From an uncultured Aliarcobacter sp. (GTDB lineage Bacteria; Campylobacterota; Campylobacteria; Campylobacterales; Arcobacteraceae): 64,000 bases of DNA. The stretch is from the NCBI GenBank assembly GCA_963664305.2, contig CAXXLV010000002.1, forward strand, positions 1,716,428-1,780,427, written 5' to 3'. Positions 24,701 through 27,700 of this stretch are shown here, one piece after another. A program made the position numbers. The first letter of the stretch is position 1; each line of letters opens with the position of its first letter.

Positions 24701-27700
24701 AAAGAAGGTTATGGTGGACTTAGAGAAACAAATCTAATGTATTGGATGGCAAATGTCTTATATGGTGTTACAAATACTAAAGATTTAATTGGGACTCAAT
24801 TTACGGAAGAAGAGTATAGAAAATATAGACAAGCTTTAGAATTTATTTTTCAAGTAAGAAATGCTTTACATAATATTGCTAGAAAAAAATTAGACCAAGT
24901 AACTTTTGATATTTTACCTGATTTAAGTTCTAAACTAGGATTTAAAAATAGTTCAAGATATACAAAAGATAGACTTTGTATGTCAAAAATCATCTCTTGT
25001 TTACACATAATTCATAACTTTACTGCAACAATGGTAAAAAAATTTACAAGAATTGCTTTTTTTGAAGCATCAAATATCTCAAAATTAAAAAAACAAAGAT
25101 ATAAAAAGAATCTTTATATTATTGATAATGAACTTTATTGTTCATTTAGTGCAAAACCTCAATCTTTAAATTATATGCTTAAAGAACTTATTGAATTACC
25201 AACAAACGTAGAAAAATTTGATAGGTCATATATTTACTATTTAAGTAAAGCTAAACTTCCAAAAGTTCAAACAAAAGAGTTGAAAAAAACTGTAAAAACA
25301 CTTTTATGTAAACCTAATTTGTATCCATTAATAAAACTTATTTACAATGCAGGACTGTTTAGAGCTGTTCTTCCTAGTACTAAAACTATGATTGATTTAC
25401 CGCAATTTGATGGATATCATAAACATCCTGTTGATATTCACTCTATAAAAACATTAAAATTTTCACAAAATATTGAAAATGAACATGTAAAATCAATCTA
25501 TAATGAATTAACAAATGAACAAAAAATTCTTGTAAGATTGGTATCTTTTTTCCATGATATTGGAAAAGGAAGAAAAGAGGATCATCATATTGTAGGAGAA
25601 AAACTATTTAAAAGTATGATGAAGTCATTTGATTTTGATGAAGAATTTATTAAAATTGGTGCAAATTTAGTTAGATATCACAATATGATGTCATACATGG
25701 CAACGCATGAAGATATTTATTCTGAAAAAACTATTTTAAACTTTACAGGGCTTATTAAAACAAAAGAGTCTTTAAATATGCTATATGTGATAACTTATTG
25801 TGATATTTCAGCTGTTGCAAAAAATATTTTCAATAGCTCTATTTCATCACTATTAAGACAGTTATATTATCAATCATTACCAGCATTTGAAGATGAAGAA
25901 TTTTTAAATGAAAGTAAAAGAAGAATTGCTAAACAAAATACAATTAAAAATCTTGAAAGATACAAAGAACTACCTACAATTTTACAAAAGAAAATTATGT
26001 ATATAGCTTCAAACCAAATCTTTTTAAGATTAAAAGCAGAAGATATTTTAGATATTGCGATTAAAGCAAAAGATGTTGATACGTATATTTATAAAATTAC
26101 AAATGAGCCTCAATTAACTATTAGAATTATTAGAAAATCTCCTCTAAATCTTGGTTATTTATTGGGTAAATTAGAGTTTTTAAATATTGCATATATGAAT
26201 ATTTTTAAATTGTATGATAATAAAAAAGCTTTTGAAATTTCTTTTTCAGAAAAAGTTGACAATGAAGATATTTATTTTATTGAAGAGATTATAAAAGACT
26301 CTTTTGATATGAATAAAACAACAAATTTATTAACTCCAATTATTAAAAAAGAGAACATAAAAATAGATTGTAACCATACAGCATATCTAGCTTCTATGCA
26401 TATTGTGGCAAAAGACCAAAAAGGTTTATTTGCTTATATTGCTAAAATTTTTGATGATTTTAATGTTGAAATAGAGAGTGCAAAACTTCACACACTTAAA
26501 GGTTATGCAAGAGATTTAATTTTGATTGAGAAAAATGGAAATTTCTGTTCAAATCAAGATGAAATTGTAAATCTTATGTGTAGAGGTGATAAAACAGAAT
26601 AAAAACTGTTTTATTATGCGCCTCTTCCGAAACAAAATCCTCCACCTAAACTACTTTTTTCACCTAAACCAACAGCAAGTGATAAAAAAGCTAGTTTTTG
26701 TGATATTTCATCTTTATTAGGTACTATTCTTAATTTATTCCCTATTAATCTTACAATTCTTTCTTTACTATTTTTAGTAGTTTTAAAATATATTGATTGA
26801 GGTTTTTCATTTTTTAATTCAATTTCTTGAATAAAATTATTTGAATCATTAACCTCTTCTTTATAAAATTGTTTTAACTTCTTTTCTAAATTATTTTGAA
26901 GTCTTTTTTGTAAAGATAAAATATCACCATTATAATATAGTGACCAAAATAGTTGTCTACCTTCAGAATCTCTTCTATCAGAAACAATAACAGGTGATGC
27001 ACTATATAACTCTTTGATAAAATATTGTTCTATCTCTTTTTTTTCTACATTTATTACTTGTAAAAAGTTATTATTTACATTTTGATAAAGTAAAATTTCT
27101 AATTCGTTTATTAATTCTTTATCAATACTTCTGATTACAAATTTATAAACTTTGTCTTTTTTATAAATTCTATCACTCTCTGTTGGATAGAAGTTCCCAA
27201 AACAGTAATTATTCATAGATTTATCTTTATTTTCTAAATCTAATTTTTTACTTTGGTATATAGAAAAATTTATATATTTTGATAAAACATCAAAACTCTC
27301 TTTTAATTCTATAAAATCTTTTAAATATGCTTCGCATTTTAGTTCAAATAAAGTCATTTACAACTCTTTGTTACAATTTATTTACAAAGTAAAAATTCTA
27401 ACAAACAAATGACTCGCAAATGACTCTTTTTTAAATTTTGAAAATTATTACTCTCTAGCTTTTAATTTTGCTGCATTAAAATCTTTTTTCCCACTACCAA
27501 GTTTTGGTATTTCATTAACAATTTTTATATCAGTTGGAATCATTAATTTATTTTCAAAATTCTTCAAAATTTTGTCTTTTAATATTAAAAGATACTCTTC
27601 ATTTACATGAGAGATTAACAATACTATTTTTTCACCTTTTTTTTCATCTTCAACACTTGTAACAATAAAATCAACTAAACTATCATCTTTCAAATCTAAT

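Follow-up and report, generated by a model that had tools for sequence, protein, structure and literature searches.

PH0350 of Pyrococcus horikoshii (3qjj, 3qjp) is an archaeal protein with the Cas6 fold, encoded in a genome with CRISPR systems. That it binds repeat RNA is suggested by the title of its PDB entry, 'One RAMP protein binding different RNA substrates'. It is called a non-catalytic Cas6 homologue in excerpts of PMC3902920. Other solved proteins, those of Methanocaldococcus jannaschii (5yi6), Pyrococcus furiosus (3pkm, 3i4h), Methanococcus maripaludis (4z7k) and Thermus thermophilus (Cas6A/B; 4c8y, 4c9d), have a tandem ferredoxin fold and rely on a histidine of the alpha1-beta2 loop (PMC3902920 and PMC3479195, excerpts). 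In TtCas6A this is His37, for which the H37A mutant shows a defect of about 17,000-fold, and in histidine-using Cas6 enzymes in general its loss lowers the rate 300- to 17,000-fold (PMC3902920, excerpt); likewise, the H38/H40 double mutant of M. maripaludis Cas6b suffers a drastic loss of activity (PMC3479195, excerpt). Two Sulfolobus enzymes, SsCas6 (4ill) and SsoCas6 (3zfv), cleave without a histidine, via lysines of helix alpha1, and are described as active on crRNA precursors and as part of CRISPR loci (PMC3902920, excerpt). In T. thermophilus HB27, the type III-associated protein Cas6-2 is reported to regulate type I-B negatively (PMC12102369, excerpt). A literature search, with subscription journals mostly outside its coverage, returned no description of a stand-alone Cas6 in Arcobacter or Aliarcobacter, or of the exaptation of a solo Cas6.

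The cas6 gene investigated here lies in a stretch of 64,000 nucleotides (the window) from the genome of an uncultured Aliarcobacter sp. (G000). Its product has the Cas6 fold without the catalytic residue of its family, as in non-catalytic Cas6 homologues. Where the histidine-using enzymes have their loop histidine, it has Asn43. It shares its fold with PH0350, but is bacterial and fixed between housekeeping genes in mostly CRISPR-free genomes. With SsCas6 and SsoCas6 it shares the lack of an active-site histidine and the presence of lysines near helix alpha1 (K19 and K44); those enzymes have been shown to be active and belong to CRISPR loci, whereas cleavage by the window Cas6 would be hypothetical. 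The likeness to HB27 Cas6-2 would be in a role by regulatory competition, beyond processing only; Cas6-2 differs in having nuclease activity and in coming from a genome that holds several CRISPR systems. Most similar are the ordinary type I-B Cas6 proteins found in this genus and in sister clades of it (for example in genomes G031 and G161), with 50-58 % identity and the same length and fold. Unlike the window gene, their genes precede cas8b-cas7-cas5-cas3-cas4-cas1-cas2 and an array and use other promoters, and the proteins keep the loop histidine.

The cas6 gene and its neighbours

The open reading frame is intact, of type I-B derivation, and encodes 247 aa (Table 1). The initial annotation described a full-length type I-B-like Cas6 with a conserved C-terminal glycine-rich loop, and both points hold. 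The PADLOC Cas6b profile matches residues 1-244 (4.7e-64) and Pfam Cas_Cas6_C (PF01881) scores 33.8 bits, above its cut-off of 23; TIGR01877, at 55.3 bits, is slightly below its equivalog cut-off of 58.65. The AlphaFold model (pLDDT 87.5) has a predicted Cas6 fold (tandem ferredoxin/RRM), and its Foldseek matches to Cas6 structures have E values from 1e-12 to 1e-5. The top PDB matches were 5yi6 (E 1.3e-12, TM 0.72), 3pkm and 3qjj, with 3i4h, 4z7k, 4c8y and 4c9d also among the matches and PH0350 as structural match at rank 5 (E 1.7e-10). A profile alignment of the window Cas6 with 5yi6 had an E of 9e-6. The glycine-rich loop, GLGEKSSLGGGF, is conserved, and its GLGEK-S-G-GF is included in the 84 positions that are at least 90 % conserved and identical between the aas-linked copies and ordinary Cas6.

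Table 1. Positions in the window of cas6, its neighbours and the elements between them
Feature	Position	Strand	Remarks
glnD (PII uridylyltransferase), 846 aa	24062..26602	+	Converging neighbour
A/T-rich inverted repeat AAAACAG-8 nt-CTGTTTT	26591..26612		Region of the 11-bp cas6/glnD gap; read from sequence
Stand-alone cas6, Asn43 at the active-site histidine position	26614..27357	-	Profile matches, histidine column, fold
Short 5' leader, purine-rich AAAGAG ahead of ATG	27358..27394	-	Read from sequence
Predicted promoter, right behind the aas stop codon	27395..27432	-	Conserved in 6/6 aligned species
-10-like TAGAAT	27395-27400	-	Part of the predicted promoter
Tandem GAGTCATTTG-n-GAGTCATTTG	27406-27426	-	Part of the predicted promoter, beside A-tract
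aas: fused MFS transporter, acyltransferase and AMP-binding enzyme, 1159 aa	27448..30927	-	Upstream neighbour, adjoins cas6 in 10/10 species

The gene had been taken for the last of a cdsA-acyltransferase-aas operon that keeps its place in related genomes. The place is indeed kept, with adjacency to aas in all nine other species that have the gene and convergence on glnD in eight of these. The cdsA/acyltransferase block is not a fixed upstream partner, being present in only two of the six genomes compared, and the conserved predicted promoter of cas6 itself argues against its being simply the end of an operon. From its sequence, the segment behind aas probably acts as the promoter of cas6 and is of a type common in G000. 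Its architecture precedes other ORFs at 13 of the 15 motif sites in this genome, and is absent upstream of five ordinary I-B cas6 genes. Because the ORFs that share it at those 13 sites are unrelated, the tandem motif was rejected as the site of a cas6-specific regulator. A scan for consensus sigma-70 sites gave 11, against 9.1 expected. The 5' leader is weakly conserved between subclades. The inverted repeat may, as a weak suggestion, be a terminator hairpin shared by cas6 and glnD; the terminator scan of the window, which used a G+C rule, found none.

Replacement of the active-site histidine

The window Cas6 has no histidine anywhere in its sequence. At column 45 of the alignment all 27 ordinary I-B Cas6 proteins of the family have histidine, against asparagine or aspartate in all six aas-linked copies of that alignment and valine or asparagine in four further species; the former histidine has been replaced in 10 out of 10 aas-linked genome copies. 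Comparisons with the 120 best database clusters also show this division, with histidine at the loop position in none of the 85 clusters at 62 % identity or above (65 of which have no histidine at all) and in all 35 clusters below 62 %. Across the aas-linked subfamily the position is occupied by N, D, V, S, Q, E or K. In eight ordinary Cas6 proteins the column-45 histidine is the only one.

On the AlphaFold model, the family's histidine is predicted to sit in the alpha1-beta2 loop (helix 18-34, strand 51-53), which in TtCas6A carries His37; its counterpart in M. maripaludis Cas6b is H38/H40. In the profile alignment with 5yi6, the family's histidine aligns with H47, where the window protein has Asn43. 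As the histidine with which its relatives cut has been lost, the window Cas6 is more likely to be a binder than a cutter of RNA. The earlier proposal of a compact, sequence-specific RNA-cutting tool is therefore doubtful, but the view of the gene as domesticated is supported.

It is rather unlikely that the protein works alone as an active endoribonuclease on a host RNA other than crRNA, with a site rewired from histidine to lysine. The lysine-based cleavage of SsCas6 and SsoCas6 provides a precedent (PMC3902920, excerpt), and both K19, at the start of helix alpha1, and K44, beside the former histidine, are at least 90 % conserved among the aas-linked proteins and replaced by other residues in ordinary relatives; purifying selection and a promoter of its own are also in keeping with a working enzyme. 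However, the former histidine position varies freely, the surrounding loop is variable in sequence and poorly modelled (mean pLDDT 60 for residues 41-50), and the cost of losing the histidine is severe in the enzymes that use it. Nor did a candidate substrate emerge. With up to six mismatches allowed, G000 contains no match to the I-B repeats from G031 and G161 or to the III-B repeat from the closest relative, G148; at seven or eight mismatches only scattered AT-rich matches appear, and at nine the two I-B repeats have 108 and 35 matches with no array-like pattern. Three of four motif patterns derived from the I-B repeat have no match in G000. The loose fourth has eight genome-wide, none of which is convincing, and in a 600-kb sample it has two, against 0-1 in five shuffles. 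Rfam gave no match in the window.

Contigs from four sequencing runs, one of them recorded as RNA and all small-share holders only, cover cas6 at about 90-93 % identity. At only this identity they come from relatives, and they carry no weight for expression, since contigs cannot show transcription and carry-over of DNA is possible.

CRISPR-Cas systems in the genome and in its relatives

The genome is 99.96 % complete, and the searches cover all of it but the masked segment C1:80001-88000. Across this range the earlier statement that G000 has no array, no Cas1 and no other Cas protein is borne out. No match to Cas1, Cas2 or RAMP was found, nothing exceeded the cut-off for cas3_core, and there is a single copy of Cas6. 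A tblastn search of G000 with 21 Cas proteins from the I-B, II-C and III-B loci of relatives found no Cas match, its sole match being an RT domain elsewhere (29.6 %). Scans by k-mer, which were validated by recovering the arrays of L054 and L055, found neither an array nor a repeat remnant in G000 outside the masked 8 kb; two three-copy matches proved to be coding repeats. No remnant of cas8b or of an array is left, and the gap from cas6 to glnD is a mere 11 bp.

The genome of G148, in which the aas-linked copy is 96 % identical, has a complete III-B island of the CorA/NrN type, with Cmr1-6, RT-Cas1, Cas2, 24 identical repeats and a CARF nuclease. The island itself lacks a Cas6, and that genome encodes no Cas6 besides the aas-linked one, which keeps a CRISPR-linked role in trans in play. 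The tRNA site that the island occupies is empty in G000, therefore such III-B systems come and go. It is possible, though unlikely, that the aas-linked protein is still a CRISPR component in this sense, which processes, holds or hands over crRNA for III-B islands that lack Cas6, or else modulates or competes with type I-B; regulation of another system by a Cas6 has been described (PMC12102369, excerpt). Such a role is favoured by the lack of Cas6 inside all four III-B loci of this lineage with flanking sequence (G148, G094, L095 and L097) and by the end of the III-B repeat, TTTGAGAC, which agrees with the tag of I-B, ATTGAAAC, at six out of eight positions. A 243-aa ORF in the L097 locus was ruled out as a hidden Cas6, being an N-formylglutamate amidohydrolase. 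Three of the six genomes with the III-B lineage have a Cas6 somewhere: besides G148, two with relatives of its system (G189 and G192) have a histidine-bearing I-B-type Cas6 at another genomic site, which also favours supply in trans. The other three (G094, G190 and G191), all drafts, show no Cas6, which counts against it. Further against it, the catalytic histidine is gone, and both species that combine the aas-linked gene with a type I-B system have a second, histidine-bearing Cas6 in the I-B locus. Cas1 and RAMPs are both absent in seven of the ten species that carry the aas-linked gene, yet it is intact there and under purifying selection. These seven were scored by Cas1, RAMPs and Cas6, the wider Cas search applying to G000 only, and they include two less complete genomes (G155, 82 %; G163, 91 %).

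Origin, selection and proposed role

The aas-linked cas6 is present in 10 out of 44 species genomes of the genus, always at the same place directly behind aas. In the tree these copies group as a single clade (support 100/99, stem 0.38), which falls within the ordinary I-B Cas6 proteins of the family and is sister to I-B Cas6 from the same genus. All 19 other Cas6 loci for which the context was checked, a count that excludes four further tree rows, carry I-B genes, either Cas8b beside cas6 or a full operon and array. Purifying selection, as claimed initially, is evident from dN/dS of 0.05-0.33 in all 15 pairs of aas-linked copies; the ordinary sister clade has lower values, of 0.07-0.18. The gene is cleanly absent, leaving an aas-glnD junction, from G182, which lies inside a cas6-bearing branch of the aas tree, and it is therefore dispensable. 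It is cleanly absent from a 12-species sister group as well. The weak resemblance to Cas6 that G130 and others show after aas falls within the aas gene itself; it is due to chance and does not mark a remnant.

These absences, together with the lost histidine and a dN/dS above that of ordinary Cas6, might suggest a functionless remnant of a decayed I-B locus that awaits erasure; I-B operons begin with cas6, therefore deletion of the remaining genes would leave it behind. This is very improbable, given that all ten genome copies are intact at 245-247 aa with dS of about 0.7-1.0 between subclades, that dN/dS does not exceed 0.33 in any pair, and that 79 full-length database clusters of the aas-linked subfamily (at least 235 aa) keep 84 positions at 90 % conservation or more. 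The promoter is likewise conserved and of a type common in G000, and nothing of cas8b or an array persists, with only the short gap before glnD. The description of the gene as a domesticated Cas6 thus stands as regards its single place in ten species, the selection on it and the seven carriers without Cas1 or RAMPs; the RNA cutting that went with it is not supported as worded, the histidine being lost.

The explanation preferred here is that a type I-B cas6 would have been captured once between aas and glnD, in the ancestor of a species group within the genus, then driven by the common promoter type, and would afterwards have lost the general-acid histidine of its family's active site. Inheritance since then would have been mostly vertical, under purifying selection whether or not CRISPR-Cas was present. 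The retained double ferredoxin fold, glycine-rich loop and positions shared with ordinary Cas6 point to an RNA-binding architecture; with this kept and the general-acid histidine gone, the protein would be an RNA binder that cleaves slowly or not at all. Its present role would be the sequence- or structure-specific binding of some RNA that is not the precursor of a resident crRNA. That the captured gene now encodes such a non- or slowly cleaving protein with a non-crRNA target is put forward tentatively, at somewhat less than an even chance, and RNA binding, loss of catalysis, expression and the nature of the target are all presumed.

Counting against this explanation are the G148 III-B island, the absence from G182, the higher dN/dS, the failure of the searches to turn up an RNA partner, and the existence of Cas6 enzymes that use lysines, taken with the conserved K19 and K44 of the aas-linked clade.

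A more specific version is possible but doubtful, namely a young exaptation within one genus in which a I-B Cas6, disarmed and placed under a common promoter, became a dedicated non-cleaving binder, acting either as a regulator of cellular RNA or as a decoy for incoming repeat RNA. As a decoy, the resident Cas6 would sequester the repeat RNA of incoming mobile elements that carry CRISPR.

If the protein does bind a defined RNA without cutting it, this would be a natural case in which an enzyme for CRISPR processing has become an RNA-binding factor of the cell. It would have been caught early, as the genus also contains an ancestor-like enzyme (52-58 % identical) whose repeat is known. Because this armed parent and its repeat persist there, the change of function could be traced stepwise, and strains with the gene, without it, and with a III-B island lacking Cas6 all exist. 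What Cas6 needs for binding as opposed to cutting, the recycling of cas genes, and whether type III systems without Cas6 borrow Cas6 proteins from the host would all be testable in this genus. As a tool, if binding is true, the protein would serve as an RNA-binding handle instead of an RNA cutter.

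A stand-alone cas6 behind aas

The product of the cas6 gene matches PADLOC Cas6b over residues 1-244 (4.7e-64, profile search) and Pfam Cas_Cas6_C (33.8 bits; cut-off 23), and scores slightly below the equivalog cut-off of TIGR01877 (55.3 bits; cut-off 58.65). In a Foldseek search, an AlphaFold model based on an alignment of 33 relatives (mean pLDDT 87.5) fell among solved Cas6 structures, with 5yi6 ranked first (E 1.3e-12, TM 0.72), followed by P. furiosus Cas6, P. horikoshii PH0350, T. thermophilus Cas6A/B, and M. maripaludis Cas6b. The gene before it on that strand, aas, encodes a 1159-aa fusion of an MFS transporter, an acyltransferase, and an AMP-binding enzyme; cas6 and glnD are convergent, with 11 bp between their stop codons.

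This is the only Cas6 copy in the genome (G000; 2.78 Mb in contigs C1 and C2, completeness 99.96 %). Over the assembly except a masked stretch of C1, which lies outside all of the CRISPR-Cas searches, profiles of Cas1, Cas2, and RAMPs gave no matches, and cas3_core gave helicase matches only, all sub-threshold. With 21 Cas proteins from I-B, II-C, and III-B loci of relatives as tblastn queries, the sole match (29.6 %) was that of the RT domain of RT-Cas1 to a reverse-transcriptase-like frame elsewhere in the genome; this frame has no cas context, and candidate identities for it are a retron, a group II intron, and a defence RT. No array was found by k-mer scans that recovered the known arrays of two relatives (L054 and L055), two three-copy matches being coding repeats, and the CRISPR repeats of relatives had no match at up to 6 mismatches. 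Neither the I-B locus of the genus, which together with its array takes up ~9.6 kb in L054, nor the III-B island (~15 kb in L060) is short enough to lie entirely within the masked stretch, at the edges of which no cas-like sequence was seen; the stretch could, however, conceal a type II-C locus (~6.5 kb in L062) or an orphan array. The stand-alone Cas6 of the initial annotation is borne out by the intact ORF, the profile and fold matches, and the lack of any CRISPR-Cas found in this genome.

Elsewhere in the window, an ankyrin protein keeps its position in the relatives compared. Two giant ORFs stand head-to-head at the end of C2; either they encode a true pair of very large repeat proteins, or the assembly folds back on itself where the contig ends.

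Coordinates of features in the window, its genome, and related loci
Feature	Location	Strand	Details
Stand-alone cas6	window 26614-27357	(-)	Intact ORF of 247 codons
Ankyrin protein	window 20192-22129		645 aa, nearly all ankyrin repeats (Ank_2 2.6e-40)
Four-gene block	window 30940-33514		117-aa ORF, CDP-alcohol phosphatidyltransferase-like gene, cdsA, acyltransferase (plsC)
Giant ORF	window 52379-57421	(-)	Bounds read stop to stop
Giant ORF	window 57527-63421	(+)	Bounds read stop to stop
Giant ORF pair	window 52379-63972		366-bp unit, 2.9x and 18.5x, 99-100 % identity, inverted orientation; reaches contig end
Masked stretch	C1:80001-88000		8 kb
Empty tRNA site	C1 ~139458-140013		Occupied by the III-B island in G148
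RT-like frame	C2:1643614-1644390		29.6 % to RT domain of G148 RT-Cas1
Promoter architecture, example sites	C2:1295837, C2:1254290, C1:688430
IS copies of G157	L051 7826-9427, L056 8250-9851		100 % identical, 1.76 kb, 533-aa DDE transposase
III-B island of G148	L060 4773-19570		WYL, DHH-CorA fusion, Cmr1, short Cas10 (446 aa), Cmr3-6, RT-Cas1, Cas2, 24 identical repeats, CARF nuclease
III-B repeats of G148	L060 16456-18171
III-B repeats of G094	L080 7035-7517

Distribution and origin of the aas-linked gene

Cas6 matches occur in 11 of 44 species genomes of the genus, ten of which carry the aas-linked form (65-96 % identity to the G000 copy). In all nine other carriers cas6 follows aas, and in eight it is convergent with glnD. 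The exception is G157, where the cas6-glnD junction is split by a rearrangement flanked by two IS copies; a 152-bp duplicate of the cas6 3′ end is left beside glnD. Seven species without the gene have a direct aas-glnD junction (22-92 bp gap), with no cas6 remnant there.

The remaining Cas6 loci of the family all carry type I-B genes where their context was checked (19 of 19, leaving out 4 further tree rows): cas6 either has Cas8b next to it or belongs to a complete cas6-cas8b-cas7-cas5-cas3-cas4-cas1-cas2 operon accompanied by an array. One branch of these systems (L012, L017, L024, L027, L030, and L031) has a ~230-aa protein between cas6 and cas8b, with an N-terminus like PADLOC PD-T4-5. In a maximum-likelihood tree of 33 proteins, including six aas-linked copies (four carriers were found later), the latter group together with support 100/99 as a single clade, which has a long stem (0.38) and is nested among ordinary Cas6, with I-B Cas6 of the same genus as sister. 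On the Aas tree the ten carriers require three changes, two of them forced by well-supported branches; G182 lies within a carrier branch without the gene, and a 12-species branch lacks it entirely. Based on the locus distribution and both trees, the gene was therefore captured once, has descended for the most part vertically, and has been lost at least once.

Across all 15 pairs of aas-linked genes dN/dS lies at 0.05-0.33 (dS between subclades 0.7-1.0), and all ten pairs of the ordinary sister clade give 0.07-0.18; selection on the aas-linked gene is therefore purifying, but looser than that on ordinary Cas6. That it is an inert remnant is very improbable.

Immediately behind the stop codon of aas, an A-tract, a tandem GAGTCATTTG-n-GAGTCATTTG, and a -10-like TAGAAT/TACAAT are common to the six aligned species. 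The tandem was dropped as a regulator site, as the same architecture (A-tract and a pair of GAGTCATTTG-like decamers at a spacing of 11 bp, followed by TAnAAT) precedes unrelated genes: it occurs at 15 sites in G000, 13 of them 31-67 nt upstream of an ORF start. It is absent upstream of five ordinary I-B cas6 genes. Since the motif is shared and recurs before unrelated ORFs, cas6 therefore has its own predicted promoter, which belongs to a kind widespread in G000. The gene is not the mere tail of a phospholipid operon, as had been proposed. RNA-library contigs covering cas6 stem from relatives and are no proof of its transcription. Of six genomes compared, G000 and G161 alone have the four-gene block between merR and aas; merR adjoins aas directly in G148 and G163.

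The active-site histidine

The main new point is that the aas-linked Cas6 has, judging from the alignments, lost its active-site histidine. One column of the 33-protein alignment holds His in 27 of 27 ordinary Cas6, in eight of which it is the sole His of the protein, and Asn or Asp in all six aas-linked copies; in the four carriers added later the residue is Val or Asn. Five of the carrier proteins (G000, G148, G157, G185, and G187) have no histidine anywhere. Among the best 120 clusters in the protein collection, 85 are at least 62 % identical to the window's Cas6; not one of these shows His in that position (N 53, D 17, V 3, S 3, Q 3, E 1, K 1, and 4 fragments), and 65 of them have no His at all, whereas all 35 below 62 % have the column's His.

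The position belongs to the loop that connects helix alpha1 (residues 18-34) to strand beta2 (residues 51-53), where the model has its lowest confidence; in a profile alignment to 5yi6 the position falls on H47. In T. thermophilus Cas6A the same loop bears His37 and is reported to be disordered without RNA; H37A costs ~17,000-fold there, and H42A of Cas6B ~300-fold (PMC3902920). The equivalent H38/H40 pair of M. maripaludis Cas6b is described as required for activity (PMC3479195). The column is thus likely to be the catalytic residue, as assigned by homology rather than residue-level superposition.

Two points speak against a plainly dead enzyme: Sulfolobus Cas6 enzymes are reported to cleave without histidine, via lysines of helix alpha1 (PMC3902920), and K19 and K44, the latter adjoining the lost His, are conserved in the aas-linked group and absent from ordinary relatives. 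An active nuclease rewired to lysine chemistry, with a host substrate, is unlikely. The 84 positions at least 90 % conserved and identical in both groups, including the glycine-rich loop, argue for a kept RNA-binding body. Tentatively, the most likely reading is that the protein would bind RNA without cutting it, or cut slowly. No RNA partner was identified when the repeats of relatives were sought in G000 (up to 6 mismatches).

A possible role in trans

Cas1 and RAMP matches are absent from seven of the ten carriers (G000, G157, G163, G155, G180, G187, and G185; G155 is 82 % and G163 91 % complete, and further cas families were searched in G000 only). In G161, a type I-B system that includes a His-bearing Cas6 of its own is joined by type II-C; in G181, type I-B, likewise with a Cas6 of its own, is accompanied by a type III system on the second contig of that genome. 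The closest relative, G148, has a 17.5-kb CorA/NrN-type III-B island beside tRNA-like repeats, with ~29 bp common to both ends. The island contains no Cas6, the aas-linked gene being the sole one of G148, and the same III-B lineage has no locus Cas6 in G094, L095, or L097. Elsewhere in the genome, G189 and G192 of this lineage encode an I-B-kind Cas6 that bears the His; none was found in the drafts G094, G190, and G191. At their 3′ end, the III-B repeats of G148 and of G094 are identical over 17 nt (GGTAGTTATTTTGAGAC). Their 6-bp stem covaries (CCTCTC/GAGAGG versus CCCCAC/GTGGGG); the change is compensatory and affects a hairpin situated 15 nt upstream of the repeat end.

These findings keep alive a trans service or regulation for CRISPR systems that come and go. 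This reading is rather unlikely, and it leaves unexplained the retention of the gene by seven species that have no such system. The initial interpretation, a domesticated Cas6 for CRISPR-independent RNA processing and a potential RNA-cutting tool, is half right: the Cas6 was captured and is kept without dependence on CRISPR, but its active-site histidine has apparently been lost. Stand-alone and non-catalytic Cas6 homologues are an already known kind, of which PH0350 is an example; the appeal of the aas-linked Cas6 is its youth, and that its armed parent occurs within the genus.
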